Shown: piece after piece, positions 1-37,708 of the stretch
Layout: every line of letters starts with the position of its first letter
How positions within the stretch are numbered: the stretch's first letter is position 1
Virus record (IMG/VR): IMGVR_UViG_3300026255_000014
Coordinates: 1-37,708 of that record
Strand: one strand, 5' to 3'
From: a virus
Length of the DNA stretch: 37,708 nt
Program-made: the position numbers and the translations under genes
The notes under the pieces: generated by a model
Databases searched by the model: none
The model's input: only the letters and a program-made list of their open reading frames with translations
What the model was told of the DNA's origin: nothing

Positions 1-312
1 CCGTTTTGTGGGAGGACACCGAATCCAGACTGGACTGATGAGAGCTACATAGAGTGTACAAATCGTAAATGTTCTCTTTATGGTTATGGAATGAGTACAG
101 GCGACTGGAACACCCGCCCAATTGAGGATGACCTTCGCAAGCGCATTGCCGAGTTGGAGGCGCTTGTTAATGTGTCGGAAGGTCTTTACGAGCGTATCTA
201 TGAGCAAGCAGCCCGCATTGCCGAGCTGGAGGCGGAGATTGTCCAACTTACCGCTCACGATGCTACAGAGCGGCAAGATGATAAGTGGATACCGGAGGTG
301 CAGGATGTGTAA
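1..312 (+). CDS. Lar-like zinc-ribbon protein, 5' truncated by window edge; duplicate copy of 37306..37638
   Basis: ORF track 91..312 translation is identical to the C-terminal part of 37306..37638; the frame is open back to position 1. Confidence 0.5.
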   Translation, partial: PFCGRTPNPDWTDESYIECTNRKCSLYGYGMSTGDWNTRPIEDDLRKRIAELEALVNVSEGLYERIYEQAARIAELEAEIVQLTAHDATERQDDKWIPEVQDV

Positions 313-382
313 CTTTTTCAGTTTTGTAACAGACCCAGTGAATCACCCAGCGGAGTATTACTACTTCGACTGGGAATATCGC
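1..382. repeat. Terminal redundancy, left copy; identical to 37327..37708
   Basis: Direct comparison of the first and last 382 nt of the window shows identity; implies a unit genome of about 37,326 bp. Confidence 0.9.
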
Positions 383-1069
383 AAGGCGCACCTAAACGAC
401 GATGGAGTGGACAGCCATTCGCATATCTGTGCATACTACCTCCTCAACGAGGATAGATGTAACAAATATGAGTTCAATCCGCTGACTGGAAGATTTGATA
501 TTGACCAAATCAACTCGGAGCGTGATGATTCAAATGCTGCAGAAAAGTGGGCGAAACGGCAGGACTTCAAAGAGATTGTCGAGACACTTATTATCAAGCC
601 GATTGTCAAACCGTTTGAGTTGCCAAAGGTAGAACAAGTGACAGATGAACAAATTGGCTGGCTGAAGGAGTGGGCTTCGGTCAGGGATTTGGTCGGGGCT
701 TCGGTCTGGGCTTTGGTCGGGGATTCGGTCAGGGATTCGGTCTGGGCTTTGGTCGGGGTTTCGGTCAGGGATTTGGTCTTGGATTCGGTCAGGGATTTGG
801 TCGGGGCTTCGGTCTGGGCTTCGGTCAGGGCTTCGGTCAGGGATTTGGTCGGGGCTTCGGTCTGGGCTTCGGTCAGGGATTCGGTCTGGGCTTCGGTCTG
901 GGCATATATCAGCAGTTTTTTCGCCATCAACTACAAATACAACTTTTCGTCTGTAGCAAATCTTTGGAACGCAGGGCTTGTACCCTCATTTGACGGTGAG
1001 ACATGGCGGTTGCATAGCAGCGAGAATGCGGATGTGGTTTACGAGTGGACGCCGGAGGTGCAGGAATGA
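305..1069 (+). CDS. Hypothetical protein with internal tetrapeptide tandem-repeat array and C-terminal WTPEVQE tail
   Basis: Same frame as ORF 122..1069; likely start ATG 305 sits 5 nt after GGAGGTG and overlaps the upstream stop. Ends in the conserved junction CCGGAGGTGCAGGAATGA. Frame assignment through the repeat is ambiguous. Confidence 0.5.
   Translation: MCNFFSFVTDPVNHPAEYYYFDWEYRKAHLNDDGVDSHSHICAYYLLNEDRCNKYEFNPLTGRFDIDQINSERDDSNAAEKWAKRQDFKEIVETLIIKPIVKPFELPKVEQVTDEQIGWLKEWASVRDLVGASVWALVGDSVRDSVWALVGVSVRDLVLDSVRDLVGASVWASVRASVRDLVGASVWASVRDSVWASVWAYISSFFAINYKYNFSSVANLWNAGLVPSFDGETWRLHSSENADVVYEWTPEVQE
672..899. repeat. 19 tandem copies of a 12-bp unit GGGNTTYGGTCN
   Basis: Read directly from sequence. 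No stop codons in any forward frame, which is why ORFs 122..1069, 670..993 and antisense 436..930 all cross it. Confidence 0.9.
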
Positions 1070-1395
1070 ACACGCTTAAACCCTGCCCGTTTTGTGGGAG
1101 GACACCGAATCCAGACTGGACTGATGAGAGCTACATAGAGTGTACAAATCGTAAATGTTCTCTTTATGGTTATGGAATGAGTACAGGCGACTGGAACACC
1201 CGCCCAATTGAGGATGACCTTCGCAAGCGCATTGCCGAGTTGGAGGCGCTTGTTAATGTGTCGGAAGGTCTTTACGAGCGTATCTATGAGCAAGCAGCCC
1301 GCATTGCCGAGCTGGAGGCGGAGATTGTCCAACTTACCGCTGATAGCACAGACGAGCGGAAAGATGATAAATGGATACCGGAGGTGCAGGAATGA
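1066..1395 (+). CDS. Lar-family-like zinc-ribbon protein (putative restriction alleviation), paralog B
   Basis: N-terminus MNTLKPCPFCG...C..RKC is a CxxC/CxxC zinc ribbon resembling Lar family proteins, followed by a coiled coil. Near-identical to 37306..37638 except the last ~12 codons. ATG 1066 overlaps the upstream stop (ATGA). Confidence 0.6.
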   Translation: MNTLKPCPFCGRTPNPDWTDESYIECTNRKCSLYGYGMSTGDWNTRPIEDDLRKRIAELEALVNVSEGLYERIYEQAARIAELEAEIVQLTADSTDERKDDKWIPEVQE

Positions 1396-1670
1396 TACCC
1401 AAAATTTCCAAAATTGTTAGCTGTGTTTGCGGATGTCATTTGGTCAAATTTGAGAAATGGACGGACGATGAAGGTGCGTGGATGATGATCTATGAGAACT
1501 CTTTTTACTCGAAACAGGGTGGAAGAATCAGGTCATATCTGAAACGGCTATGGTCAGCAATTCGAGGAAAAGAATATTTGCTGATGGAAATCAGCATGTC
1601 AGACGAGGATACTGTTGGGCTAAGAAATGCACTAATCGAGGCTACAACACCGCCGGAGGAAATCCAATGA
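1392..1670 (+). CDS. Hypothetical small cysteine-containing protein
   Basis: ORF track 1371..1670 with internal ATG 1392 overlapping the upstream stop; contains CVCGC. Confidence 0.5.
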   Translation: MIPKISKIVSCVCGCHLVKFEKWTDDEGAWMMIYENSFYSKQGGRIRSYLKRLWSAIRGKEYLLMEISMSDEDTVGLRNALIEATTPPEEIQ

Positions 1671-2014
1671 ACCGGACATACGAGGAGTGGGTTGAGAAGG
1701 TGACGGACAGCAGCGCGGACATTGCGCTCGCGGACATGCTGGCGGACTGGCAGGCGGACATCATCCGGCGAATGAAGGCTGAGCACGCGCTGAATAAGCG
1801 CATTGCCGAGCTTGAGGCGGAAATTGACCAACTTACCGCTGATAGCACAGACGAGCGGAAAGATGATAAGTTACCTGAGCGGGAAGTGTGTGAAGCCTGT
1901 GGGGGCGATGGCACATTGCTTTTAGTAGACAACTATAAAGGGCAAGCAACTGCAACTGTGGATTGTCCGTATTGCAACGGCACTGGACGTGTAAACAAGG
2001 AGTGTGAGAAATGA
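1667..2014 (+). CDS. Hypothetical protein with coiled coil and DnaJ-type CxxCxGxG zinc finger
   Basis: Translation contains CEACGGDG and CPYCNGTG; the coiled-coil segment RIAELEAEIDQLTADSTDERKDDK is shared with the Lar paralog at 1066..1395. ATG 1667 overlaps the upstream stop. Confidence 0.55.
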   Translation: MNRTYEEWVEKVTDSSADIALADMLADWQADIIRRMKAEHALNKRIAELEAEIDQLTADSTDERKDDKLPEREVCEACGGDGTLLLVDNYKGQATATVDCPYCNGTGRVNKECEK

Positions 2015-2271
2015 GCGAACAAAAACATCCGGATGATATGACGCGTGAGGAGTTGATAACCCTCGTGTTTGCAATGAGCTGGGCGGCGTTGGATTTAGCA
2101 CAACACTTGGATTTTACAACAAAAATGCTGAAAGAAGAATATCGAAAAGAAGCTTACAAAAAAGCGACACGAATGGCATATGAACTTGTTTTTCTTTGGG
2201 AAGTAGAACCAGATGAGAATAAAAATTCGGGGATACTTATTTTTGGTGAAAATGGATTGGAGCACGGGTGA
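2011..2271 (+). CDS. Hypothetical protein
   Basis: ORF track; ATGA overlap with upstream gene. Confidence 0.5.
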   Translation: MSEQKHPDDMTREELITLVFAMSWAALDLAQHLDFTTKMLKEEYRKEAYKKATRMAYELVFLWEVEPDENKNSGILIFGENGLEHG

Positions 2272-2585
2272 GCAAGTCAGCGCTTGAAGCAGAGTTAGCC
2301 TTGCAGATCAAGGCGTTGGGCTTGCCAGAGCCGATTCGCGAATACCAGGCAATCAAGGGGCGCAAGTTCCGCTTTGACTTCGCTTGGCTTGAGCACAGGT
2401 TGCTGGTGGAAGTGAACGGCGGCACTTACACGAAGGGTGCTCACTCTACAGGTCGGGGCATTGCGCGAGACTACGAGAAGGCGAACCTGGCTACGCTTGA
2501 CGGCTGGCGCGTGCTGATGTTTGACGGCAAGGCGGTGAAGTCGGGTGTAGCGGTTGAAGTGATTAGACAGGCGTTGGAGGCGTGA
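2268..2585 (+). CDS. Putative PD-(D/E)xK-type endonuclease (DUF559/Vsr-like motif pattern)
   Basis: GTG start overlapping the upstream stop; pattern FRFDFAW...LLVEVNGG...H...RD...L...GW.VLMF recalled from DUF559-like nuclease domains. Confidence 0.45.
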   Translation: MSKSALEAELALQIKALGLPEPIREYQAIKGRKFRFDFAWLEHRLLVEVNGGTYTKGAHSTGRGIARDYEKANLATLDGWRVLMFDGKAVKSGVAVEVIRQALEA

Positions 2586-2586
2586 G

Positions 2587-2793
2587 ATGGGATTTTGGGA
2601 AGAGTTGTTTTATGTCATGAAAATAGGCACGGTGGTTACCGTGTGTGGGCTGTTGGCAAGTTTGCCGATAGCGTTTATAGTGCACCTCGCGATTGAAAGA
2701 GGGTCATGGTTGTTAGGTGTTCTGGCGTTCTTTGTACTTATAGCGATTGCGAGTATAGCGGTTGTTATCCAAGAACGGTTGGAGGCTGAATGA
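2587..2793 (+). CDS. Small membrane protein (two predicted TM helices)
   Basis: Hydrophobic segments VVTVCGLLASLPIAFIV and LLGVLAFFVLIAIASIAVV. Confidence 0.5.
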   Translation: MGFWEELFYVMKIGTVVTVCGLLASLPIAFIVHLAIERGSWLLGVLAFFVLIAIASIAVVIQERLEAE

Positions 2794-4584: not shown

Positions 4585-5071
4585 AACGCCATTGCCAGAT
4601 GCTTTGAAAGAAGCACAGGGAACGCTGAAGAAGAGCCGAGTAAATGACTCTCAGGCTCGTTTTGACGTACCTAAAGACTCACCGAAACCGCCGACAACGC
4701 TCAATCTCTATGGCAAGCGGTTGTGGAAAGAAATGCTGCCAAAGTTGGTTGAAACAGGTCTTTATACCGAAGGTGATCACCAGGCGTTTGAATTGCTTTG
4801 CATGGCTTATGGTGATCTGATTCAGGCACGCAAAGACCTTAAAGAGTCGGGTACGATTGTTATCACAGACAAGGGCACGGTTTATCAGCACCCTAACGTT
4901 GGGATCGCAAACCAGGCTTGGAATCGGGTGAAACTGATGTTGGGGCAGTTTGGGCTGACACCAGCAGAGCGGACACGAGTAAAAGCACGCTCACCCGAAG
5001 AGAAAAGGGGCAGTTTGGCAGAATCGTTGTTTGCTGCTGCACGTGAAAAGGTTGAGGGTGAGACTGAGTGA
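4574..5071 (+). CDS. terS: Terminase small subunit (P27-family-like)
   Basis: Motif GQFGLTPAERTRVKA and N-terminal RGRTPLP resemble P27-family TerS. Start uncertain: GTG 4574 follows an AGGTGGGG SD; ATG 4547 and 4532 are in-frame alternatives. Confidence 0.7.
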   Translation: MRGRTPLPDALKEAQGTLKKSRVNDSQARFDVPKDSPKPPTTLNLYGKRLWKEMLPKLVETGLYTEGDHQAFELLCMAYGDLIQARKDLKESGTIVITDKGTVYQHPNVGIANQAWNRVKLMLGQFGLTPAERTRVKARSPEEKRGSLAESLFAAAREKVEGETE

Positions 5072-6375
5072 GTGCAAATCTGTATTTAGGTGACTGTCTG
5101 GAAGTCTTATCAACGCTTGAAGCGGATAGCATTGACACCTGCATCACTGACCCGCCTTACGAGTTAGGTTTCATGGGTAAGAAGTGGGATTCAAGCGGCA
5201 TTGCGTTCCAGCCTGAAACTTGGCAAGCCGTATTCAGGGTGCTGAAACCAGGTGCAATTCTGCTTGCCTTCGGCGGCACTCGCACCTATCACCGCATTGC
5301 TTGCGCTATTGAGGACGCTGGCTTTGAAATCCGTGACACTATCGCTTGGGTATACGGGAGCGGATTCCCTAAAAGTTACGACATAAGTAAGGGAATTGAC
5401 AAACAAGCTGGAGCTGAAAGGGAAATAGTAGGCTACAAGGAAACATCAACTTATCCAGATAGCGATGGTGTTGCTCATTACAAAAACAGGCAACAAAGCA
5501 ATGGTTCTCAAGTCAATACAGGAGGTATGCCAGAAATCACCGCGCCCTCCACCCCCGAAGCGCAACTCTGGGATGGCTGGGGCACGGCGTTGAAGCCTGC
5601 CTTTGAGCCGATAGTTGTTGCGATGAAGCCGATTGACGGCACGTTTGTCAACAACGCGCTCACTTGGGGCGTGGCTGGCTTGTGGATTGACGGGGGTAGG
5701 GTGGGGACGTCAAAAAACGTTCCTGCATCACCAAGCGATAAAGGCACTCTGCAATGTAAAGGTTTGGGCGGTGGATGGGATAGAAGCGGAATGAATCCGA
5801 ACATTGGTCGCTTCCCTGCCAACTTGATTCACGACGGCTCGGATGAGGTGGTGAGTGGGTTTCCGAATACTACGAGCGGCAAGGTTGCGGCTGGAACTAT
5901 GCGAGGCTTGAAAAGCAATCACAATGTGGCATACGCAGACATCGCCGCCGGAACTGAATTGACTGGCTACGGCGACTCTGGCTCAGCCGCGCGCTTTTTC
6001 TACTGTGCGAAAGCCAGCCGAAGCGAGCGCAACGCTGGGCTGGAGGGGATGGAAGAAAAGGTCGGCGGTGGAATGAAGGGCACGGAAGACCAAACGCTTT
6101 TGACTGGCTCTGGAAACATCCGCAACAATAAAATGCAAAACCACCATCCCACCGTCAAGCCAATCGAACTGATGCGCTACCTTGTTCGGCTTACCAAAAC
6201 GCCAACAGGCGGGGTGGTACTTGACCCGTTCATGGGGTCTGGCACGACTGGCATTGCTTGCGTGTTGGAAGGACGCGAGTTTATCGGAATTGAGCGGGAA
6301 GCGGAGTATGTCGAGATTGCAGAAAAGCGGATTGCGCATTACAGGTTGCCGATATTGGAAGAAGTGATCGAGTGA
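5068..6375 (+). CDS. DNA methyltransferase (N6-adenine/N4-cytosine, beta-class order)
   Basis: N-terminal DPPY (ITDPPYELGF) and C-terminal AdoMet motif LDPFMGSGTTGIA. Confidence 0.85.
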   Translation: MSANLYLGDCLEVLSTLEADSIDTCITDPPYELGFMGKKWDSSGIAFQPETWQAVFRVLKPGAILLAFGGTRTYHRIACAIEDAGFEIRDTIAWVYGSGFPKSYDISKGIDKQAGAEREIVGYKETSTYPDSDGVAHYKNRQQSNGSQVNTGGMPEITAPSTPEAQLWDGWGTALKPAFEPIVVAMKPIDGTFVNNALTWGVAGLWIDGGRVGTSKNVPASPSDKGTLQCKGLGGGWDRSGMNPNIGRFPANLIHDGSDEVVSGFPNTTSGKVAAGTMRGLKSNHNVAYADIAAGTELTGYGDSGSAARFFYCAKASRSERNAGLEGMEEKVGGGMKGTEDQTLLTGSGNIRNNKMQNHHPTVKPIELMRYLVRLTKTPTGGVVLDPFMGSGTTGIACVLEGREFIGIEREAEYVEIAEKRIAHYRLPILEEVIE

Positions 6376-8966
6376 AAAAGTACGATCCCTGGAATTGCGA
6401 CCTTGATAAGTACGAATTTGACCCTGTGGCTGGGCAGGTTGCAGTCGACTTTATTGAAAATTATATTACCCATGTCAAAGGGGAGTTAGGCGGCAAGCCT
6501 TTTTTGCTTTTGGAGTGGGAAAAGGATTTTGTAAGAAACCTTTTCGGTTGGAAAGAAAAGGAAACAGGTTATCGGCGTTACCGTGAGGCGTTTGTATTTG
6601 TGGCACGGAAAAATGGCAAAGCATTAGAAGTCAATACTCCGATTCTGACTACTACAGGTTGGAAGAAACACGGCGATTTAGTCCCTGGAGACTTTGTTTT
6701 TTCTCCTGATGGCGTACCCGCAAAGGTTATCTATTCTACTCCTCATTATGAGGGGAATTGTTATTTTGTGGATTTCTCAGGCGATGAAGCAATTATCGCT
6801 CACGAAAATCACGAATGGAAAACTAACCGCACCTGGTATACAGGAAAGCCCAAATGGATAGAAGGTGAAAAGCCTTTGGTTACCACTAAGCGGATTGCGG
6901 AAACTCTACGATGTGGGAAACGCCAAGACCTTGTGCATTCTGTGGATGTTGCGAAACCGATACAGTTTGAGCCAAAAGAATACACAATACCCCCGTATGT
7001 TTTAGGCGTTTGGCTTGGCGATGGCGACTCTGACAGTTGCAGGATCACGATTGCAGAACCTGAAATTGTCCAGAAGCTATCTGATTATGGTTATCCAGCC
7101 GAATATAGATCAAGATACCGACACCTTGTTGGACGGGGGAAGTTTCAAAAGCAACTGCGTGAAAAGGGCTTACTGGGCAATAAGCATATACCACAAGAAT
7201 ACTTGCTTGGTTCAGTTGAGCAAAGGATCGACCTCTTGCGCGGATTGATGGACACAGACGGTTATGTGTCTTCGGCTGGACAATGCGGAATTGCATTAAC
7301 CGACGGTAATTTGTTTCGCCAAGTTGTCGAATTAATTACAGGCTTGGGATTAAAGCCTCGCGTAATGATTGATCGTGCTCAGTTAAATGGGGTTGACTGC
7401 GGAGTTAGATATAGAGTCCACTTCTATGCCTATCAAGACACGCCAATAGCATATATTGAGCGAAAAGCCAAACGGCAAAAAGAAACTCCAAAAACAAGGC
7501 GGCGCAGCCAGACTCGGATGATTTCAAATGTTACGCCCGCAGGTAAGCAAACAGTCAACTGCATCACAGTCGAAGGCGGGATGTATCTCGCAGGAAAGCA
7601 ACTTATCCCAACTCACAACTCACCTCTTGGGGCTGCCATCGCGCTTTATCTGTTGATTGTAGACAATGAGCCTGGTGCAGAGTTGATCTCTGTAGCAGCA
7701 GACCGAGACCAGGCACGGGCGATTTTTGACACGGCTCGTTTTATGGTAAAGCAAAACGCCGCCCTGGACGAATTGGTTAGTGCATATCGAAATGCGATTG
7801 TCGCTAAGCAAGGGGCTTCAGTTTACAAAGTTGTTTCATCGGATGCTGGCACTAAGCATGGTGGAAACTTACATGCTGCGCTTTTTGACGAGTTGCACGC
7901 TCAGAAGAACCGAGACCTTTACGATGTTGTGCAAACCAGTTTTGGCGCGCGCCGTCAACCACTGCTGATTTCTTTTAGTACGGCAGGGTTTGATCGTGAG
8001 TCGATCTGCTATGAAGTTTACTCAATGGCAAAGCAGATTTCTGAGGGCATAATCCAGCGAGATTGGTTTTACCCCGTAATATACGAGGCATCGCCAGAAG
8101 ACGATTGGACAAGCGAAGATACGTGGAAGAAAGCCAATCCGAGTTTGGGACACTCGATCAAGATTGATTACCTGCAGAAGAATTATGAAAAGGCTCTATC
8201 AAGCCCGCAGTTCCAAAACACTTTCAAGCGTTTGTATCTCAATATGTGGACATCGGCAGAAACACGCTGGCTTGATATGCAAAACTGGGACAAATGCGGT
8301 GAGCAACCGATTGACATGGGACTGCTTGAAGGGGCTGAATGTTACGGCGGTCTTGACCTTGCGACAGTTTCTGACATTGCTGCTTTTGTACTGGATTTCC
8401 CGAATGAAAGCGGTGAAGAGGAATTGCACACCTGGCTTCCGACCTTGTTCTGTCCAGAGTCAAAGTTGACCGACCCAGGTTTCATTGACCGCGACATTTA
8501 CAGGGCTTGGGCTGACCAGGGCTATTTGATTGCAACGCCTGGAAACGTGATTGACTACGAGTACATCATTGCTGAAATTGAGCGATTAGGTGAACTTTAC
8601 AACATTAAAGAGATCGCATTTGACCGTTGGGGTGCTGCACAGATTTCACAAACGCTTACCAATATGGGCTTTACTTTGGTTGGTTTTGGTCAAGGGTACG
8701 TGAGCATGTCACCACCCACAAAAGAAGTTGAGCGGTTGATATTACAAGGCAGGGTGAGACATGGAAACCACCCTGTAATGCGTTGGATGGCGGATAACGT
8801 TATGGTTACGACTGACCCTGCAGGGAATATCAAGCCAGACAAGAAGAAAAGCAGGCAGAAGATTGACGGCGTGGTTGCGGCAATCATGGCAACCGATAGG
8901 GCAATTAGAAATTCTGTAGGTCGCAAGGACTCTGTTTACGAAAAAAGAGGGTTGGTTGTTCTATGA
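6372..8966 (+). CDS. terL: Terminase large subunit, interrupted by an in-frame intein
   Basis: 864 aa; removing residues 84..416 yields the P-loop ARKNGKS and a Walker B-like LLIVDNE with a C-terminal nuclease-like domain. GTG start overlaps the upstream stop. Confidence 0.9.
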   Translation: MKKYDPWNCDLDKYEFDPVAGQVAVDFIENYITHVKGELGGKPFLLLEWEKDFVRNLFGWKEKETGYRRYREAFVFVARKNGKALEVNTPILTTTGWKKHGDLVPGDFVFSPDGVPAKVIYSTPHYEGNCYFVDFSGDEAIIAHENHEWKTNRTWYTGKPKWIEGEKPLVTTKRIAETLRCGKRQDLVHSVDVAKPIQFEPKEYTIPPYVLGVWLGDGDSDSCRITIAEPEIVQKLSDYGYPAEYRSRYRHLVGRGKFQKQLREKGLLGNKHIPQEYLLGSVEQRIDLLRGLMDTDGYVSSAGQCGIALTDGNLFRQVVELITGLGLKPRVMIDRAQLNGVDCGVRYRVHFYAYQDTPIAYIERKAKRQKETPKTRRRSQTRMISNVTPAGKQTVNCITVEGGMYLAGKQLIPTHNSPLGAAIALYLLIVDNEPGAELISVAADRDQARAIFDTARFMVKQNAALDELVSAYRNAIVAKQGASVYKVVSSDAGTKHGGNLHAALFDELHAQKNRDLYDVVQTSFGARRQPLLISFSTAGFDRESICYEVYSMAKQISEGIIQRDWFYPVIYEASPEDDWTSEDTWKKANPSLGHSIKIDYLQKNYEKALSSPQFQNTFKRLYLNMWTSAETRWLDMQNWDKCGEQPIDMGLLEGAECYGGLDLATVSDIAAFVLDFPNESGEEELHTWLPTLFCPESKLTDPGFIDRDIYRAWADQGYLIATPGNVIDYEYIIAEIERLGELYNIKEIAFDRWGAAQISQTLTNMGFTLVGFGQGYVSMSPPTKEVERLILQGRVRHGNHPVMRWMADNVMVTTDPAGNIKPDKKKSRQKIDGVVAAIMATDRAIRNSVGRKDSVYEKRGLVVL
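6621..7619 (+). mobile_element. Intein (333 aa) with LAGLIDADG homing endonuclease domain inside the TerL Walker A motif
   Basis: Begins ALEVNTPILT, contains LGVWLGDGDS and LLRGLMDTDGYV, ends ...LIPTHN followed by Ser; splicing restores ARKNGK|SPLG. Confidence 0.8.
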
Positions 8967-26032: not shown

Positions 26033-28426
26033 ATGGCAAATTGGGCTAAGTTACAAGAGCAACTGACAGGACTGCCTGTTGTAAAGCGAGACAAGCACAG
26101 CATCCACTTTGCCAAAGGTGACGGGCAAATCGTTGCCAACTTCTCAGGCGCACCCTGTCACTATGAAGAGAACGGCATCTGGAAAGCACTCGACACCGCC
26201 ATCGTTGAACTGGAAGACGGCTCACTTGGCGCAAAGGGCGTACCAGTCCGCTTGAACCTGAACGGGCTTGTCAGGCTTATCAACGAAAACAACGAGGACT
26301 TATACAGTCAAGTCACGACACGGGTGGGCGTGTTCAATAGCACTACCCGCAACTTGGTAGATTACATCAACCTGCCAGTAGGACAAGTTCAAGACGACCT
26401 GCTGATAAAAGACACCGACCTCTATTCTCACAGTTTGCGCTTGACCGAAACAGGCTTGCGCGAAGAAATTGTCATCAAGTCAAAGCCAGCGTTTGTAACC
26501 GACAAGGCTAACTTATGGCTGGTACTTGACACGGTTGTGACGGGCGTAAGTTTCGAGGACGGCTGGCTGGATGCGTTTGAGATTGCGCAAATGCACTTCC
26601 CACCTCCAACCGCTACCGATGCGGAGGGGCGAGAGGGCACGGCGAAACGCTATGCCAAGAATATTGGTGGCGTTCAGCACATCTTTACTGGCTTGAAATT
26701 CAGTGAGTTGTATCGGGCGGCTTACCCTGTAACGGTTGACCCTGACTTTAGTGGTGGGTCTGGATATGTAATTACTAGTCAAAGTACTGATTATGCTACT
26801 GCAAGAACAACGAGTGTATCTTCAGCAGCTTGGTCGAATAGGTCTGACGTTGGGCAGGGACAGTGGTCTGTTTATCTAAGAACTTTACGCATCTTTACAA
26901 AGTTTGACACATCAAGTATAGGAGCAGGCTCAACAGTTACACAAGTTAACTTGGCTATGTGCCCTTATTATAACAATTCTGCTACAGATTTTGACATCCA
27001 GATATGTATGCAAGACTGGTCGGCTCAAGACCCCATAGCATCGGGAAATAGAGAAACAGCGTTTGACAACTGTCTCGCAGAAACAGATTACGATGTTTGG
27101 TTGAACAGTGCTGATTGTCCGAAAAGACAGAGATATACGGGTGGAAATATGACCACATCGTGGATTAACAAGACTGGCACAACATATTATAGTATTCGCT
27201 CAAGTAGGGACTACAACGGCGATGAGCGTGTAATTGATGGAAATACTGAAACTGTTAACTTGTGTGCGCCAGATAACGCCACCGAATCCTACCGCCCCGT
27301 TCTTACCGTCACCTATCTCATTCCCGACTACACCCTCACTTGCGCCGCCGGTTCATACTCGCTGACTGGCACGGATTGCACGCTTACGCACACTCCGGCA
27401 TCGCAAAACCTGACCCTCACCTGTTCCGCTGGCTCATATTCGCTAACAGGCACGAACGCCGACTTGACGGTCAAGCGGAATTATGTGCTGGCGTGTGGTG
27501 CTGGAAGTTATTCGCTCACCGGCTCGGATGTGGATTTTGTTCTGCAACGCAATTACTCGCTTGAATGCGGTGCTGGAAGTTACAGCCTGACTGGTACGGA
27601 CACGACATTCGAGGTCAAGCGAAATTACACGCTTGTCTGTGAAGCTGGAAGCTACAGTCTTACTGGTACTAACGCCGACTTGACGGTCACCCGACATTAC
27701 ACGCTAACCTGTGAGACTGGAAGTTATGCGCTTGCTGGCACTAACGCCGACCTTATTTTACAGCGCAACTATGTGTTAGCTTGCTCTGCTGGCAATTACT
27801 TAATCACAGGCACGGACGTAACACTCACTGTTCAACGCAATTACACCCTCACCTGCGCCGCCGGTTCATACTCGCTGACTGGCACTAACGTCACGCTCAC
27901 ATCAACCGTAAAGCAAAACTTGACGCTGGCTTGTTCTGCAGGCTCGTACTCGCTTACTGGCACTAACGCCGACTTGACGGTCACCCGACATTACACGCTA
28001 ACCTGTGAAGCTGGAGGTTATGCGCTTACTGGCTCAATCGTTGATCTGACAGTCCAGCGCAACTATGTGTTGGTGTGTGAAGCTGGTAGTTACGCGCTAA
28101 CCGGAACAAACGCAGGCTTGACTTCTGCTCGCACAATGGCACTCGAATCAGGTTCGTACGCCTTGACTGGCACGAATGCCGGTCTATACCGCGCGTTGGT
28201 TATGGCTTGTGAGGCTGGAACTTATGCGCTCACAGGCTCGGATGCTACGTTCAATGCCAATTACATATTTGCTCTCGGAATGGGGAGTTACGTTCTGGTT
28301 GGCACGAGCGTGGGATTGTTCGTTCTCTCGCCAACACCGGCTTGCAGAACCGCGACAATCGAATTTGAGAACAGAACATTTGCAATTCCGCATGAGAATA
28401 GAACATTAGAGGTCACATGTCACTAA
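26033..28426 (+). CDS. Large repeat protein: ~430-aa N-terminal domain plus ~16 tandem 22-23-aa Cys-containing repeats
   Basis: Repeats of consensus YTLTC.AGSYSLTGTNADLTV.RN span roughly nt 27320..28330. Confidence 0.6.
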   Translation: MANWAKLQEQLTGLPVVKRDKHSIHFAKGDGQIVANFSGAPCHYEENGIWKALDTAIVELEDGSLGAKGVPVRLNLNGLVRLINENNEDLYSQVTTRVGVFNSTTRNLVDYINLPVGQVQDDLLIKDTDLYSHSLRLTETGLREEIVIKSKPAFVTDKANLWLVLDTVVTGVSFEDGWLDAFEIAQMHFPPPTATDAEGREGTAKRYAKNIGGVQHIFTGLKFSELYRAAYPVTVDPDFSGGSGYVITSQSTDYATARTTSVSSAAWSNRSDVGQGQWSVYLRTLRIFTKFDTSSIGAGSTVTQVNLAMCPYYNNSATDFDIQICMQDWSAQDPIASGNRETAFDNCLAETDYDVWLNSADCPKRQRYTGGNMTTSWINKTGTTYYSIRSSRDYNGDERVIDGNTETVNLCAPDNATESYRPVLTVTYLIPDYTLTCAAGSYSLTGTDCTLTHTPASQNLTLTCSAGSYSLTGTNADLTVKRNYVLACGAGSYSLTGSDVDFVLQRNYSLECGAGSYSLTGTDTTFEVKRNYTLVCEAGSYSLTGTNADLTVTRHYTLTCETGSYALAGTNADLILQRNYVLACSAGNYLITGTDVTLTVQRNYTLTCAAGSYSLTGTNVTLTSTVKQNLTLACSAGSYSLTGTNADLTVTRHYTLTCEAGGYALTGSIVDLTVQRNYVLVCEAGSYALTGTNAGLTSARTMALESGSYALTGTNAGLYRALVMACEAGTYALTGSDATFNANYIFALGMGSYVLVGTSVGLFVLSPTPACRTATIEFENRTFAIPHENRTLEVTCH

Positions 28427-28698
28427 CATTACAAAATCCATTGAAAGACCCTTCCGCAGTGCTGGATTATGTGTTCGACTGGACGGAATGGCTGGCAACC
28501 GGCGAAACAATCACCGACCATACTATCACAGCCGACACGGGTATCACCGTTGACAGTTCGACTGAATCAGACGGCAAAGTTACCGTCTGGCTCTCAGGCG
28601 GTACGGCTGGTATCAATTACAAAGTGGCGTGCCTGATTACAACGTCCGCAGGGCGAACCGACGAGCGCACAATCTGGATCAAGGTGGTCGAAAGGTGA
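28417..28698 (+). CDS. Small conserved-looking phage protein (possible fiber-associated)
   Basis: Pattern DYVFDWTEWL...VTVWLSGGTAG.NYKV recalled as a recurrent phage family; function unknown. Confidence 0.35.
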   Translation: MSLTLQNPLKDPSAVLDYVFDWTEWLATGETITDHTITADTGITVDSSTESDGKVTVWLSGGTAGINYKVACLITTSAGRTDERTIWIKVVER

Positions 28699-30185
28699 GC
28701 AATTTGTTTCCAGACATAACGGGCGTGCTATATGAAGAAGAACAGTCAAAATTACATGAGATAGCCAAAACAACTACGCATCCAATTGTCAACATTGGCG
28801 TATATCAAGGATTGTCTACCGCACAACTTGCAAGTGGCACAAAGCAGAGCGTGTACGCCATTGACATTTGGGATGAGCGACCAGCAGGGTATGTCCCAAG
28901 TAAAAGGGACTTGATGAGGGGATACCACCTGAAGAAAACTCAGGACGTTTTCCTTGAAAACATGGAAAAGCACGGCTTGACAAACGTTATCCCGATAAAG
29001 GGTAACAGCAAGGTGGTTGGCAAAACCTGGGACACCCCGATAGGCGTGTTGTTTATCGACGGTGATCACCATTACAAATCCGCGCTTTCGGATTACAGCT
29101 TGTTTGCAAAACACATTGTAGTCGGCGGATGGTTAGCAATTCACGATTATCACATAAAAGACGTTAGAAGGGTGATAGACGAGATCATCATTCCTTCGGG
29201 ACTGTGGACGGACATTGAACTGACAGAGACCTTATGGGTTTGCAAGAGAAAGTCGTGCACGACAGCAGACGCAAAACCGCCTATGACATACTGGATACGC
29301 CATCATCAGCACAAAGGGAAGCCAATTGAAGACGCTTTAATTAGTCAAGGATGGCAGTGTAGTGACGCGCCAGATATTGCCTTGTTCGACACCGCGAGGA
29401 ACAAACCTATAGAACGCAGGTTTAGAAGAGGGGGCGCAACGCTTGTAGTCTATCCGCATACGGCAATTGCTGGCTGGTGGTACGACGGGATATTAGAACC
29501 GCCTAACGGCTTTAGTGCAATACTGGCTATCGGGGAAGGACAGAAGGAAGTCCAGAATATCATCACGCCGAACATCAGGGTTGAAACAATTGGTTGGAGT
29601 TATTGTCCAATCTTGCCATTTCAAAAGCCAAAGGCGATCAAGCAAATACTGTTTGCCCCCATCCATCCAAGCCTCAATGGCAAGTTGAGATCAGAGGCAA
29701 AAGACGTGAACGTCAGGGTGTATAAGCGTTTGCTGGAAATGAAAGGCGTGCAGATAAACCTTCGTGTTATTGGCGATCTTGAAAAGAATGGATTATGGCA
29801 CTCGCCAGATGTTACAACCACAGAAGCCCAACCAGACGGAAGTTATGCAGAAATTGATTCTGCAGATTTGGTGATAGGCGAGGGCATGTTTCTATCGCTT
29901 GCAGTAGCCAGAGGGAAGCCAGCTATCGGAATGAATCAGCGCGTAACACAGAAAGTAAACTGGAGTGGGCGCGTTCCAAAACGGTGGAACGAATATAACC
30001 ACTTACAAGCATATCCGATTGACTTTGATGACGCTGATCTGCCGGAGTTGATTGACAAGGCGGTAGACGAATCACAGGTAAGCAACTGGAAGAAACGCTT
30101 TATCGGTGAGCAGTTGCAACCTGAGCATTTATCAAACGTGCTAAAGGACATCAGGAATGAGCATGCCAAACAGAGAGAACAATAA
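28695..30185 (+). CDS. Fusion protein: class I SAM-dependent methyltransferase-like N-terminus, glycosyltransferase-like C-terminal domain
   Basis: NIGVYQGLST...FIDGDHHY...GGWLAIHDY resembles Methyltransf_24-type O-methyltransferases; C-terminal ADLVIGEGMFLSLAVARGKPAIG resembles GT-B C-terminal domains. GTG start overlaps upstream stop. Confidence 0.5.
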   Translation: MSNLFPDITGVLYEEEQSKLHEIAKTTTHPIVNIGVYQGLSTAQLASGTKQSVYAIDIWDERPAGYVPSKRDLMRGYHLKKTQDVFLENMEKHGLTNVIPIKGNSKVVGKTWDTPIGVLFIDGDHHYKSALSDYSLFAKHIVVGGWLAIHDYHIKDVRRVIDEIIIPSGLWTDIELTETLWVCKRKSCTTADAKPPMTYWIRHHQHKGKPIEDALISQGWQCSDAPDIALFDTARNKPIERRFRRGGATLVVYPHTAIAGWWYDGILEPPNGFSAILAIGEGQKEVQNIITPNIRVETIGWSYCPILPFQKPKAIKQILFAPIHPSLNGKLRSEAKDVNVRVYKRLLEMKGVQINLRVIGDLEKNGLWHSPDVTTTEAQPDGSYAEIDSADLVIGEGMFLSLAVARGKPAIGMNQRVTQKVNWSGRVPKRWNEYNHLQAYPIDFDDADLPELIDKAVDESQVSNWKKRFIGEQLQPEHLSNVLKDIRNEHAKQREQ

Positions 30186-32214: not shown

Positions 32215-32242
32215 TTGACTTTTGCTTTAATTTGTGTATAAT
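32215..32242 (+). promoter_or_regulatory. Sigma-70-type promoter, near consensus (probable early promoter)
   Basis: TTGACT (32215..32220), 16-nt spacer, TATAAT (32237..32242); RBS TAAGGAGC and ATG at 32284 downstream. Confidence 0.65.
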
Positions 32243-33031: not shown

Positions 33032-33300
33032 CCGTACTCGGAATCAACGTAACAGACAGAGATCCAGACTTATTTTATTGGCCAAAGCCTAACTGGCACG
33101 GCAAACCTGCAGAGTTGTTGAGAGTTGAAAGCAAGATTGAAGATCTGTGGGAGTGTTACGGAAAAAAGTGTGACATTATCCCGTTGCCGAATATCGAACT
33201 TGACGAGCTATTAGACGAAATTGATCACCTGGAAAAAATCAAAACAAGATTATGGAACGAATGGCAACACTTAGAAACAGAAAAGGAGCTAACACAATGA
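33028..33300 (+). CDS. Hypothetical protein
   Basis: ORF track; ATGA overlaps at both ends. Confidence 0.5.
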   Translation: MTVLGINVTDRDPDLFYWPKPNWHGKPAELLRVESKIEDLWECYGKKCDIIPLPNIELDELLDEIDHLEKIKTRLWNEWQHLETEKELTQ

Positions 33301-33953
33301 ACAAGTCAGAATCAATTCAGAACTTATCAGCAGCCTTATCGAAGGCGCAAGCGGAAATGCCTGCTATCAAGTTTGACAGCAAAAATCCGTTTCTCAAAAA
33401 CGACTACGCCAGTTTAGGCGCAATCATAGCGGGGGCGCGACCCGTACTCGCGAAGCACGGCCTCTCGGTAGCACAACTCACTTTTGGCGAAGATGGTGTG
33501 GCTGGAGTCGAGACCGTACTCATGCACGCTTCCGGCGAATGGATCAGTAACTCTATCTCAATGCCTATTGGCGAAGAGAAGGGCAAGTCATCCGCGCAGG
33601 TTGCAGGTTCTATTGTAACGTATCTTCGCCGGTACAGCCTGGCTTCAATACTGGGTATCTATTCAGACGAAGACGGTGACGGCAATAAGCCAGAGCCAAC
33701 GCGCAAGCCAACCAGAACAAAGCCAGAAGCTCAAGCCAACGATGACATCATGACTATCGAGCGAGCATCAAAAGTCACGAACAGCAAAGGCACGCCTTAC
33801 GTTGACATCGCAAGTGACGTGTTGCAACGAATGGTGATCGGCATCAATAAGGGTTTGCAGAACAGCGCGGATGACGAAAAACGAGCCGAGTATCTCGAAA
33901 AGAAACAGGCTATTGGCGTGATATTGAAGGCACGCGCAGACAAGTCAATTTGA
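33297..33953 (+). CDS. ERF-family single-strand annealing protein
   Basis: Motif SAQVAGSIVTYLRRYSLASILGI and overall pattern typical of ERF recombinases; ATG 33297 inside ORF 33252..33953. Confidence 0.7.
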   Translation: MNKSESIQNLSAALSKAQAEMPAIKFDSKNPFLKNDYASLGAIIAGARPVLAKHGLSVAQLTFGEDGVAGVETVLMHASGEWISNSISMPIGEEKGKSSAQVAGSIVTYLRRYSLASILGIYSDEDGDGNKPEPTRKPTRTKPEAQANDDIMTIERASKVTNSKGTPYVDIASDVLQRMVIGINKGLQNSADDEKRAEYLEKKQAIGVILKARADKSI

Positions 33954-34017: not shown

Positions 34018-34980
34018 ATGAATAATGAACTAATAACGCTTGATGAGAGAAGCCGTTTATACCAGCTTGAAGAAACTATCAGGCAAGGGCTGAATACCTT
34101 CGTGGATGTTGGGAACGCCCTGCTTGAGATACGGGACAAACGGCTTTACAGGCAAGAGCACAGCACGTTCGAAGAATACTGCAATAAGCAGTGGAACTTT
34201 ACAAAACAGCGTGTCTACCAACTTATGGATTCTGCCTCTGTAATCGACACTCTAAAAAAGTCAACCGTGGTTGACTTTTTACCAACCTCTGAACGCCAAG
34301 CCCGCCCGCTTGCGTCACTTGAGCCAGAAGAACAGGTTGAAGCATGGAAGCGCGTTATTACATCAACGCCGGAGGGCAATGTTACAGCCAAGATTGTTTT
34401 GAAGGCTGTAAAGGAAGTTGAGCGCGAGAAGCGCATTGAGCGAAGGCAAGAGCGCATAGAAAGTACTCCTGTAATTCCAAACGGGAAATACAACGTCATT
34501 TATGCTGACCCTCCCTGGCAATACGCATTTGGGTTTGATATTCATGGGGCAGCCGATAGACACTACTCCACTATGTCAATTGATGAACTTTGTGAATTGC
34601 CGATAAGAGACTTGACCGAAGACAACGCAGTCTTATTTATGTGGACGACATCACCAAAGTTATTTGATTCTTATGCTGTAATAAAGGCATGGGGATTTGA
34701 GTATAAAACTTCCTTCGTCTGGGACAAAGTGAAACATGTCATGGGGCACTATAACAGTGTCAGGCATGAGTTCCTTCTACTTTGCACAAAGGGAAGTTTT
34801 CCAAAACAGTCTAATACTTTACACGACAGCGTTATTGAAATCGAGCGATCGGACGAACACAGCGAAAAACCTGAATATTTTCGGCAACTAATTGAGACGA
34901 TGTATCCGCTATCGAAAAAAATAGAGTTATTCGCACGTAAAACTGTCGATGGCTGGGATGGCTGGGGGAATGAAATATGA
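34018..34980 (+). CDS. MT-A70-family N6-adenine DNA methyltransferase with N-terminal putative DNA-binding domain
   Basis: VIYADPPWQY, FMWTT, KAWGF, VWDK, EHSEKP, ELFARK...GWDGWGNE are MT-A70 signatures. Confidence 0.85.
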   Translation: MNNELITLDERSRLYQLEETIRQGLNTFVDVGNALLEIRDKRLYRQEHSTFEEYCNKQWNFTKQRVYQLMDSASVIDTLKKSTVVDFLPTSERQARPLASLEPEEQVEAWKRVITSTPEGNVTAKIVLKAVKEVEREKRIERRQERIESTPVIPNGKYNVIYADPPWQYAFGFDIHGAADRHYSTMSIDELCELPIRDLTEDNAVLFMWTTSPKLFDSYAVIKAWGFEYKTSFVWDKVKHVMGHYNSVRHEFLLLCTKGSFPKQSNTLHDSVIEIERSDEHSEKPEYFRQLIETMYPLSKKIELFARKTVDGWDGWGNEI

Positions 34981-36211: not shown

Positions 36212-36402
36212 GCGACAAAATGTGCGCGACTTGTAAATATTTTCAAACTTCAATCAGGCAGCCGCAGGGGTCTAGTCAGAAAGAGTTAGTCATGACCTGC
36301 CGCAAAGGGCACGTTCCTATCGCGTGGTTTAGCGGTAGAGAGTGCGAAGACTATCAACCAAAACTATCAGAGACACAGGAGCAAACATGTACCAAAAACT
36401 AA
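36208..36402 (+). CDS. Small cysteine-containing hypothetical protein
   Basis: ORF track; CATC...C..GH. Confidence 0.4.
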   Translation: MSDKMCATCKYFQTSIRQPQGSSQKELVMTCRKGHVPIAWFSGRECEDYQPKLSETQEQTCTKN

Positions 36403-36746
36403 TATTGATCGGCCATTTAGGCAACATTCCAGACACTCGCTACACAGCAAAAGGTGATCCCGTGACGAGCTTCAGCGTGGCGACTTCGCGGCGTTACGGT
36501 GAGACGGACGAGACCACCTGGTTCAGAGTGTCGGTGTGGGGCAAGCAAGCGGAGGCGTGCCAGACTTACTTGCACAAAGGCGCGAAGGTGCTGGTGGAAG
36601 GCAGGTTACGCCCTGACTCGAACGGCAACCCGACCACGTTCCAGCGCAAGGACGGCACGTGGGGCGCGAGCTTCGAGGTGACCGCAGAGAACGTAAGGTT
36701 CTTAGACGGCAAGGCTGATAGTGAGCCTGCTGAAGTGCCGTTTTAG
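36387..36746 (+). CDS. ssb: Single-stranded DNA-binding protein
   Basis: MYQKLILIGHLGNIPDTRYT...TWFRVSVWGKQAEAC..YLHKGAKVLVEGRL is the SSB OB-fold signature. Confidence 0.85.
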   Translation: MYQKLILIGHLGNIPDTRYTAKGDPVTSFSVATSRRYGETDETTWFRVSVWGKQAEACQTYLHKGAKVLVEGRLRPDSNGNPTTFQRKDGTWGASFEVTAENVRFLDGKADSEPAEVPF

Positions 36747-36755
36747 GAGGATGAG

Positions 36756-37124
36756 ATGAGTAAAGAGTTCAAAATAAATCTTCTCGAAGAAATGGATTTG
36801 CTTTATGCCAAGATACACAGACTCGAAGACGTTTGTGAACAGGCGAACATTATGCTGAATCAGCGAGATGAAATCGAAGAGGGGCTCAACAAGCGCATTG
36901 CCGAGTTTGAGGAAAAGCAACGCTGGCGTGTTGTTGCAGATGGAGAGTTGCCGGAGGTGTATCGGGATGAAGACGGCGAATTTATACCCTTTCTTGTTTG
37001 CGAAGGAGACGGAGACCGCCCATTCATAGCAATGTATGGCGGTAAAAACTGGCATGCTGGAATATTTGTGCCTGACATCACCCACTGGATGCCCTTGCCA
37101 GAATTGCCGGAGGTGCAGGAATGA
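36756..37124 (+). CDS. DUF551-like protein
   Basis: C-terminal HWMPLPELP resembles the DUF551 signature; ends in the conserved PEVQE junction. Confidence 0.5.
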   Translation: MSKEFKINLLEEMDLLYAKIHRLEDVCEQANIMLNQRDEIEEGLNKRIAEFEEKQRWRVVADGELPEVYRDEDGEFIPFLVCEGDGDRPFIAMYGGKNWHAGIFVPDITHWMPLPELPEVQE

Positions 37125-37309
37125 GCGACATTAAAGAGTATCAGTCAGATTCAATAGTTTGCGATTTGTGTAATGGAAAAGGAAATATATTGATGACCTT
37201 CCATGATTGGATTTTAGATGAAACGCGCACGGAAGTGAGTACCTGTATCCGTTGTAAAGGCAAGGGCTTCTTGCATGATGGCAAACAGCCGCCGGAGGTG
37301 CAGGAATGA
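37121..37309 (+). CDS. Small zinc-ribbon protein
   Basis: CDLCNGKG...CIRCKGKG; ends in the PEVQE junction. Confidence 0.55.
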   Translation: MSDIKEYQSDSIVCDLCNGKGNILMTFHDWILDETRTEVSTCIRCKGKGFLHDGKQPPEVQE

Positions 37310-37638
37310 ACACGCTTAAACCCTGTCCGTTTTGTGGGAGGACACCGAATCCAGACTGGACTGATGAGAGCTACATAGAGTGTACAAATCGTAAATGTTC
37401 TCTTTATGGTTATGGAATGAGTACAGGCGACTGGAACACCCGCCCAATTGAGGATGACCTTCGCAAGCGCATTGCCGAGTTGGAGGCGCTTGTTAATGTG
37501 TCGGAAGGTCTTTACGAGCGTATCTATGAGCAAGCAGCCCGCATTGCCGAGCTGGAGGCGGAGATTGTCCAACTTACCGCTCACGATGCTACAGAGCGGC
37601 AAGATGATAAGTGGATACCGGAGGTGCAGGATGTGTAA
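37306..37638 (+). CDS. Lar-family-like zinc-ribbon protein (putative restriction alleviation), paralog A
   Basis: Same N-terminal zinc ribbon and coiled coil as 1066..1395; complete copy of the gene truncated at 1..312. Confidence 0.6.
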   Translation: MNTLKPCPFCGRTPNPDWTDESYIECTNRKCSLYGYGMSTGDWNTRPIEDDLRKRIAELEALVNVSEGLYERIYEQAARIAELEAEIVQLTAHDATERQDDKWIPEVQDV

Positions 37639-37708
37639 CTTTTTCAGTTTTGTAACAGACCCAGTGAATCACCCAGCGGAGTATTACTACTTCGACTGGG
37701 AATATCGC
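37327..37708. repeat. Terminal redundancy, right copy; identical to 1..382
   Basis: Direct sequence identity. Confidence 0.9.
37631..37708 (+). CDS. 5' end of the tandem-repeat protein gene (duplicate of 305..382), truncated by window end
   Basis: Identical to 305..382. Confidence 0.45.
   Translation, partial: MCNFFSFVTDPVNHPAEYYYFDWEYR

Follow-up and report, generated by a model that had tools for sequence, protein, structure and literature searches.

What is the use, to a phage, of ending one small gene and starting the next with the same 18 nucleotides, at one boundary after another? The question is raised by a viral sequence of 37,708 nt (IMG/VR record IMGVR_UViG_3300026255_000014, positions 1 to 37,708; here called the window), in which CCGGAGGTGCAGGAATGA stands at four gene junctions and a close variant at a fifth. 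All copies are confined to one array of small genes, about 2.3 kb long, between the SSB gene and a DUF559-like gene. An earlier note on this sequence had taken the junction for a module boundary that allows cassettes to be exchanged, and the array for a possible anti-defence island. Comparison with relatives supports the first idea: the element is probably a standardised translational-coupling junction which doubles as a short-homology crossover point, that is, a linker of the Botstein type.

A scan of the window finds exact copies of the 18-mer at J1, J2, J4 and J5 (Table 1), all four on the + strand. Even when as many as three mismatches are tolerated, shuffled sequences hold 0.04 matches on average, and none of 100 shuffles reaches four. 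The 14-nt core CCGGAGGTGCAGGA also lies at 292 and 37618, inside the variant ...GGATGTGTAA. The earlier note had listed six sites; the motif and its recurrence are real, but three of the positions given (1055, 1377 and 37097) are off by 1–10 nt, and the count is five. Window 37327–37708 is identical to 1–382, an exact terminal overlap of 382 nt, which makes the sites at 292 and 37618 (290 and 37617 in the note) one physical site. Any feature near either window end counts double if this overlap is ignored. The array does run on across the window ends, as the note had supposed: the independent IMG/VR contig L028/L094 (loci and contigs are designated by L numbers), 99.2% identical over 7452 nt, spans them with gene order unchanged, and the continuity is therefore not an artefact of how the window was cut.

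In the frame of the upstream open reading frame (ORF) the 18-mer reads CCG GAG GTG CAG GAA TGA, or P-E-V-Q-E and a stop codon. The same bases carry the start signals of the next gene: GGAGGTG, a Shine-Dalgarno sequence, lies 5 nt before an ATG (4 nt at J3) that overlaps the upstream TGA, the final four bases being ATGA. The stop/start overlap is ATGA at four junctions and ATGTGTAA at the fifth. This anatomy, which the earlier note had described, is read at each site, and it is that of an ATGA-type translationally coupled junction, with overlapping stop and start and a Shine-Dalgarno sequence at functional spacing within the upstream ORF.

The motif is not merely the generic ribosome site of this phage, because GGAGGTG is scarce: the + strand of the window has just six, one for each of the five junctions and one at 36953, inside the DUF551-like gene, as against 38 occurrences of GGAGG. 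Nor can ribosome-site strength explain the exact sequence, because its predicted anti-Shine-Dalgarno duplex, at -13.2 kcal/mol, is ordinary among the other junctions of the phage (-11 to -16 kcal/mol). The motif is asymmetric, with neither dyad symmetry nor a hairpin, and the opposite strand of the window has no copy, its sole near-match being one site with three mismatches to the 14-nt core. A programmed frameshift or read-through joining neighbouring genes was considered and rejected: inspection of the sequence found no slippery site near CAG GAA TGA, and the fused architectures found in relatives are continuous ORFs. Iterons, a replication origin and a packaging site were likewise rejected, the copies being placed at gene ends and unclustered across 2.3 kb.

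When the two array halves were compared by blastn with 50,697 GenBank phages, nothing matched, and a cultured relative is therefore not at hand; the phage group is an uncultured one from wastewater, represented by bioreactor and activated-sludge contigs. In IMG/VR the exact 18-mer was found at 34 loci (41 sites), in every case on the coding strand at a TGA/ATG overlap and between very diverse flanks. An exact scan of metagenomes gave at least 118 loci, mostly from bioreactor and activated-sludge samples. In 185,579 reference genomes (596 Gb) there are 59 loci, nearly all of them single chance-type matches in unrelated taxa, and these were used as background; the true relatives among the 59 are five short contigs (L046, L071, L083, L084, and L091). 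The metagenome-assembled genomes holding these five are labelled Anaerolineaceae, Methanospirillum, Bathyarchaeia, Fastidiosipila, and “bacterium,” an inconsistency that probably reflects mis-binning and is not evidence of the host.

Viral, genome, and metagenome matches were pooled, and a conservative subset was limited to loci encoding a homologue of an early or array protein of the window. Exact-match scans are ascertained on the motif itself; the independent set consists of 71 loci chosen through SSB homology. The gene caller used here misplaced some starts (Lar-like gene 1 was merged into the repeat protein), and maps of gene families are qualitative only; quantitative statements rest on comparisons of flanks that do not depend on gene calls.

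A search for the 18-mer in relatives, the check proposed in the earlier note, finds the motif present and constant, with gene content varying on each side. The pooled set holds at least 152 distinct 18-mer sites, with at least 68 upstream and at least 89 downstream nucleotide classes; the conservative subset, from at least 92 loci, holds at least 107 sites, with at least 37 upstream and at least 56 downstream classes in at least 92 combinations. Among the matches listed, 455 pairs of sites share the upstream flank alone, 149 the downstream flank alone, and 20 both, and where one flank is shared its mean identity is 82%. In the upstream-only pairs among these matches, the first base past the motif differs in 56%, and in 90% the identity extends no further than 3 nt, as it does in unrelated pairs. 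At least 35 pairs combine one flank of 150–250 nt that is 95–100% identical with an unrelated flank on the opposite side.

Single loci give the same picture. In different contigs the 3′-terminal 150 nt of the DUF551-like gene, at 98% identity or more to the window, lead through the exact 18-mer into at least 10 different genes; the 92-aa gene is found behind at least four different upstream genes. L031 and L095 match the window at 92% up to J1, where a Lar-like gene follows at once; what they lack is precisely the 62-aa cassette bounded by J1 and J2. L178 is made up of window 36870–37124 (95.7%), a single 18-mer, and window 1378–1659 (98.9%); its difference from the window is an exact J1-to-J5 indel, 1597 nt long and comprising four genes. 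L221 is 99.3% identical over the replication genes and 93.5% up to J1, then unrelated until the DUF559-like gene. Throughout, array content differs among relatives, and the array flanks are 82–99% identical. At the starts of Lar-like genes the conserved stretch is about 46 nt, the junction plus some 28 nt.

The PEVQE-type junction is not the only one of its kind. Its variants depart from it chiefly at the spacer or at the first three bases. The distribution of sequences over 164 ATGA-overlap junctions is bimodal: 28 of them have the core 14-mer, and the runner-up is found at six. A second allele, AAGGAGCGTGAGGAATGA (encoding ..KEREE-stop), is no less promiscuous, being found at 30 distinct sites, with 18 upstream and 28 downstream classes, in the same phage group (L007, L015, L029, L108, and others); a third recurrent junction, GGAGGTGGTGGAATGA, stands three times in L121. 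What recurs, then, is a limited set of standard junctions and not a single fixed sequence.

If the junction is a linker, it could work as follows. The array would be part of an early operon without internal promoters, in which the 18-mer gives the upstream gene its last five codons and stop, and the downstream gene a 7-nt Shine-Dalgarno sequence, a 5-nt spacer, and an overlapping start (ATGA); each cassette would then be translated by termination–reinitiation coupling. The PEVQE-type sequence and at least one alternative allele (AAGGAGCGTGAGGAATGA) are found around many different small genes of co-circulating phages, in several copies per genome. A crossover within the junction would delete, duplicate, insert, or replace whole genes, and every recombinant would automatically keep frame, stop, ribosome site, and start. 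The likely route would be annealing-type recombination by the phage's ERF and SSB proteins, or template switching in replication. ERF and SSB are plausible agents because Erf-type recombinases act efficiently on diverged or short homologies (PMC3945230). Cassettes flanked by the junction would spread more readily, which would keep the junction uniform.

Several points weigh against this reading. The motif is far from universal: the earlier note had called the junction conserved, and it is kept in many relatives, but the exact sequence is present in only 12 of the 71 SSB-selected loci, with several close SSB relatives lacking it, and is often replaced by variants or by the second allele. Those loci hold 17 exact copies, seven with one mismatch, and one with two, all on the + strand and none on the - strand. 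At the 3′ end of the repeat-protein gene the exact 18-mer is found in just five of about 17 orthologous ends. After ..VYEWTPE, a native C-terminus kept in homologues regardless of the junction type that follows, five continue with VQE-stop, two with near variants, four with the KEREE-stop type (AAGGAGCGTGAGGAATGA and close variants), and the rest with other sequences. Non-standard junctions at these ends track the downstream gene, and part of the motif may just travel with that gene as its ribosome site. Red-beta recombination is quoted as needing at least some 30 bp (PMC3945230), more than the 18 nt of the motif, and exchange at the motif by itself should therefore be infrequent. Recombination is read from comparison of sequences; coupling, the enzyme, and any circular intermediates are inferred; and metagenome assemblies could hold some chimeras where homology exceeds 18 nt.

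The exactness of the motif could have other causes. It might be a shared regulatory target of the early genes (a translational operator, an RNase site, or an oriented repressor site), with shuffling incidental. The T4 RegA and RegB targets are sited in early ribosome sites, and the stoperators of mycobacteriophages are oriented repressor sites spread genome-wide. Here the spacer CAGGA is conserved though not needed for ribosome-site function, all copies share one orientation in one early operon, and since the strength of the ribosome site is unremarkable, the sequence is kept exact by more than ribosome binding. Regulation alone does not predict homology breakpoints exact to the motif, however; orthologous junctions switch to KEREE-type or non-standard sequence with the gene retained, the copies lie within about 2.3 kb and not genome-wide as stoperators do, no candidate regulator or repressor was identified, and this explanation is considered unlikely. 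Quite unlikely too is an inherited remnant, consisting of a DUF551-type W-x-P..P-E tail and the ribosome site after it, passed on through descent and domain deletion, with illegitimate joints selected at gene boundaries (the Hendrix model) and no role in recombination. Many upstream genes do end in HWMPLP..PEVQE (DUF551) or DDKWIPEVQE, KWIP being the start of DUF551 in fusions; the native ..EWTPE of the repeat protein already encodes CCGGAG; and a partial copy lies at 36951, at about the point where the 122-aa gene becomes DUF551-like. But unrelated proteins end in the 18-mer too (an N6_N4 DNA methylase, membrane peptides, zinc fingers, the 92-aa gene), and illegitimate joints would not recreate an identical 18-mer at more than 100 distinct boundaries, or put breakpoints 0–3 nt from both of its edges. 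The junction-to-junction indel of L178 is the signature of exchange between repeats.

Exchange could also be the work of a dedicated enzyme for which the junction is the recognition site, either an integron-like recombinase or a nuclease encoded beside the array, such as the DUF559-like protein, that would stimulate exchange by cutting. The cassettes are promoter-less and same-facing, as in integrons, and of 14 neighbouring genes tested the DUF559-like gene has the strongest association with the motif, being present in 10 of 12 motif-bearing and 9 of 34 motif-free SSB-selected loci (Fisher p = 0.0013, uncorrected for the 14 tests and confounded by relatedness and partial contigs). Several neighbouring genes have similar p values, though, and the DUF559 profile match is itself weak (18.3 bits, below cutoff). 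The proteins scanned hold no integrase or recombinase domain besides ERF, and the motif lacks dyad symmetry, a hairpin, and other-strand copies; such an enzyme is very unlikely. It is hardly credible that the shuffling is only apparent, produced by chimeric assembly over a short repeat. The comparative data do all come from metagenome contigs, and the longer conserved stretch at Lar-like starts could mislead assemblies made with a small k; but the smallest k in normal assembler use exceeds 18 nt, many alternative downstream genes share just the 18-mer, five copies stand inside single contigs, and separate projects, assembled independently, gave the same arrangements (the window, L028, and L168). 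The linker reading can also be taken further, to an integrase-free, community-wide, integron-like pool of cassettes docking at PEVQE- and KEREE-type junctions, with circles excised from junction to junction and re-inserted in a co-infecting phage, exchange perhaps stimulated by the DUF559-like nuclease or favoured by ERF, and Lar-type zinc-ribbon variants as the arms-race payload; this is a long shot.

The closest documented analogue of the junction, considered as a linker, appears to be the promoter-early stem-loop (PeSL) mobile regulatory cassette of T4-type phages (Arbiol et al. 2010, PMC2839356; Comeau et al. 2014, PMC4122927). PeSLs too are short conserved expression signals repeated between small non-essential genes, in a hyperplastic region, and an incoming gene lands in a correctly expressed context. 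The present repeat likewise separates small accessory genes, conserved blocks lie on both sides of the variable region that contains them, and indels and replacements between relatives end in the repeat (breakpoints within 0–3 nt of its edges; L031, L178, and at least 10 alternative genes). PeSLs, however, consist of an intergenic sigma-70 promoter and a terminator stem-loop, whereas the junction is 18 nt of upstream coding sequence, holding neither, and would work at the level of translation, through stop, Shine-Dalgarno sequence, and start. Promoter-like sites in the array number 10, against 4.7 ± 2.1 in shuffles, and terminator-like sites seven, against 4.0 ± 2.0, in neither case a clear excess and none of them at a junction. 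A natural linker inside coding sequence, acting on translation, would be what sets the junction apart. PeSL mini-circles have been demonstrated; circles excised at the junction would be a prediction.

The origin of phage mosaicism has been debated since about 1980, the choice being between homologous exchange at linkers and random illegitimate joins that selection then filters. In the linker model of Botstein and Campbell, modules are exchanged by homologous recombination at short conserved flanks that ensure placement and regulation (summarised in PMC2839356). Exchange at a short conserved flanking sequence is common to that model and the present case; the model was framed for multi-gene lambdoid modules, and its linkers have rarely been found, whereas here mostly single small genes are concerned and the linker is an exact sequence overlapping coding sequence. 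Clear natural linkers being rare, a candidate so sharply defined (18 nt, a second allele, more than 100 distinct gene boundaries, breakpoints at the motif edges, and exact indels from junction to junction in near-identical genomes) bears on the debate, and it suggests a design principle: with stop, ribosome site, and start in one unit, every recombinant would be expressible.

As to the machinery, where homology is short or diverged, Rad52-like phage recombinases (Red-beta, RecT, Erf) generate mosaics (De Paepe et al. 2014, PMC3945230). This phage has an ERF-family gene near SSB, of predicted activity; the bare junction, at 18 bp, falls short of the quoted minimum for Red-beta, though homology often extends on one side. 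Like integron cassettes, the array genes are small, promoter-less, similarly oriented, and individually exchangeable, and are separated by a recurring sequence. Unlike integrons, the array has no attI/Pc and no attC hairpin, its repeat is a coding and ribosome-site element, and exchange would presumably be homologous, not site-specific. Pfam scans of 30 window proteins found no integrase, the small ORFs elsewhere in the window not all being among those scanned.

Table 1. Junctions, array genes, and bordering genes, in window coordinates (array features follow the order of the genes across the window ends)
Feature	Position	Strand	Description
ERF-family single-strand annealing recombinase	33297..33953	+	98 bits; upstream of array
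SSB gene	36387..36746	+	directly upstream of array
122-aa gene	36756..37124	+	coiled coil and DUF551-like C-terminus
Internal partial copy CCGGAGGTG (E-L-P-E-V)	36951..36959	+	near start of DUF551-like part of 122-aa gene
J1	37107..37124	+	exact 18-mer; ends 122-aa DUF551-like gene (..LPELPEVQE-stop), starts 62-aa zinc-finger gene
62-aa gene	37121..37309	+	two CxxCxGxG motifs
J2	37292..37309	+	exact 18-mer; ends 62-aa CxxCxGxG gene (..KQPPEVQE-stop), starts Lar-like gene 1
Lar-like gene 1	37306..37638	+	110 aa; CPFCG zinc ribbon and coiled coil; ends KWIP, the DUF551 start point in fused homologues
J3	37618..37638 (= 292–312)	+	variant CCGGAGGTGCAGGATGTGTAA, spacer 1 nt shorter; ends Lar-like gene 1 (..KWIPEVQDV-stop), starts repeat protein (MCNFF..)
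Repeat-protein gene	305..1069	+	254 aa; 4-residue repeat, DNA repeat 671–903
J4	1052..1069	+	exact 18-mer; ends repeat protein (..VYEWTPEVQE-stop), starts Lar-like gene 2
Lar-like gene 2	1066..1395	+	109 aa; near-identical duplicate of gene 1 except 3′ patch
J5	1378..1395	+	exact 18-mer; ends Lar-like gene 2 (..KWIPEVQE-stop), starts 92-aa gene
92-aa gene	1392..1670	+	Cys-containing cassette gene
Degenerate junction CCGGAGGAAATCCAATGA	1653..1670	+	between 92-aa and 115-aa genes
115-aa gene	1667..2014	+	coiled coil (shared segment 1799–1869) and CxxCxGxG zinc finger
Junction AAGGAGTGTGAGAAATGA	1997..2014	+	two mismatches to second standard allele AAGGAGCGTGAGGAATGA
Further small genes	after 2014, up to DUF559-like gene	+	right part of array
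DUF559-like small protein	2268..2585	+	105 aa; phrog_503, E = 1.5e-28; conserved right border of variable array

In L029 the site orthologous to the degenerate junction between the 92-aa and 115-aa genes is the exact 18-mer, and in L091 it departs from the 18-mer by one mismatch. The genes so joined are not “otherwise unrelated,” as the earlier note had called them: the two Lar-like genes are duplicates, and coiled-coil modules are shared among the Lar-like, 122-aa, and 115-aa genes. Lar-like genes 1 and 2 differ by one mismatch in about 290 nt, and the ends of the duplicate coincide with the motif; two of the five motif copies may derive from this one duplication. The 3′ patch of gene 2 (1297–1370) matches 1799–1869 of the 115-aa gene. 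Together, the duplication and the 3′ conversion patch in gene 2 are visible traces of recent exchange within the genome.

Exchange within genes seems to use other repeats. CGCATTGCCGAG, which encodes R-I-A-E in a coiled coil, occurs six times in the array, and coiled-coil segments (CGCATTGCCGAG.., ..QLTADSTDERKDDK) are repeated in four array genes and in many relatives (in the window at 142, 214, 1228, 1300, 1799, and 36894). These coding segments serve as within-gene crossover points, the 3′ patch of Lar-like gene 2 being one example. L168 is 99.9% identical to window 212–2645 and just 71–77% identical upstream, and because identity drops upstream of 212 its crossover is placed at an internal coiled-coil repeat. 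One database protein (P0002) has a Lar-like N-terminus fused to the zinc finger of the 115-aa gene.

Domain assignments for the array proteins are generally weak in Pfam; their PHROG hits are weak or to families of unknown function, NCBIfam and PDB sequence searches with them gave nothing useful, and none matches any characterised family. The 122-aa protein reaches 22.8 bits for DUF551 (PF04448; cutoff 22) in a partial match to profile positions 38–68 of 68; proteins of relatives match the full profile at 30.9 and 43.5 bits. A DnaJ_CXXCXGXG match among the array proteins is under its cutoff. The repeat protein, with about 19 copies of [S/L]-V-[R/W/G]-[D/A] and DNA periods of 24, 36, and 48 nt, multiples of a 12-nt unit, matches no family in Pfam or PHROGs. 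Repeat number differs among its homologues, and L096 has three tandem paralogues.

The resemblance to restriction-alleviation proteins on which the anti-defence proposal was based is sub-threshold in the window proteins, whose Lar_restr_allev (PF14354) scores, 21.5 and 21.2 bits, are below the cutoff of 28.6; the L031 homologue reaches 27.9. Many database homologues of the Lar-like protein at E values of 1e-18 or weaker (P0033 onwards, to about 1e-11) have a precomputed PF14354 hit. The 1282 database homologues combine varied zinc ribbons with varied coiled coils and end in nothing further, in DUF551, or in a CxxCxGxG finger; among the best 120 of the 1282, 33 end in EVQE and 10 in VQDV. In the L031 fusion protein (Lar, 27.9 bits; DUF551, 43.5 bits) the DUF551 domain begins KWIPVSERLPE, and because the Lar-like proteins of the window end KWIP-EVQE-stop, at that very starting point, they are forms without DUF551. 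To our knowledge, the Lar protein of the Rac prophage is the only one tested experimentally.

The protein layout is equally compatible, by analogy, with a developmental role of the Ea22 type. Variants of lambda Ea22, encoded by mosaic genes in the exo-xis region, have a variable N-terminus, a coiled coil, and a swappable C-terminus, which may be DUF551, and Ea22 has a pro-lysogenic effect (PMC10834534). The same plan is seen here, with N-termini that are Lar-type zinc ribbons, unlike those of Ea22, and no sequence match of window proteins to Ea22 was detected. That Lar-type variants turn over fast at a single position hints at an arms race but is no evidence of one; on the whole the array looks more like a set of genes joined by linkers than a proven anti-defence island. 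The junction would still mark a pool of rapidly exchanged small early genes (Lar-type zinc ribbons, DUF551 fusions) worth screening for host-takeover and anti-defence functions.

The 382-nt overlap indicates a complete phage genome, some 37.3 kb long, with either circular closure or terminal redundancy. All scanned genes and array genes are on the + strand, as is every ORF of at least 110 aa that does not overlap a longer one. The genome encodes small and large terminase subunits, an N6_N4 methylase, portal and capsid proteins, and a GH25 lysin, and its early block holds the ERF recombinase, an MT-A70 methylase, a DnaB_2-like replication protein, and SSB. A strong promoter-like site (TTGACT, 16 nt, TATAAT; 11 of 12 consensus positions) lies at 32215–32242, in the one intergenic gap of any size that precedes the early block. 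It is a candidate for the early promoter of the array, which would then occupy a position like that of the lambdoid nin region within a long early transcript.

A few other features of the genome were noted in passing. There are three methyltransferase genes in its 37 kb: MT-A70 (34018–34980), N6_N4_Mtase (5068–6375), and Methyltransf_24 (28629–30185). Methylase genes are found as junction-flanked cassettes in relatives L021, L071, and L110. The N6_N4 DNA methylase of the window has 435 aa, against a profile of 221 positions, which suggests an insertion; the related L071 methylase has more than 524 aa. The large terminase subunit (6372–8966; 864 aa) has a homing-endonuclease (Hom_end) match at residues 273–350, before the ATPase domain, pointing to an intein-like insert. 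Finally, a tail-fibre-like protein of 797 aa (26033–28426) is made up in part of many tandem units of about 21 residues with the sequence GSYSLTGT[ND].

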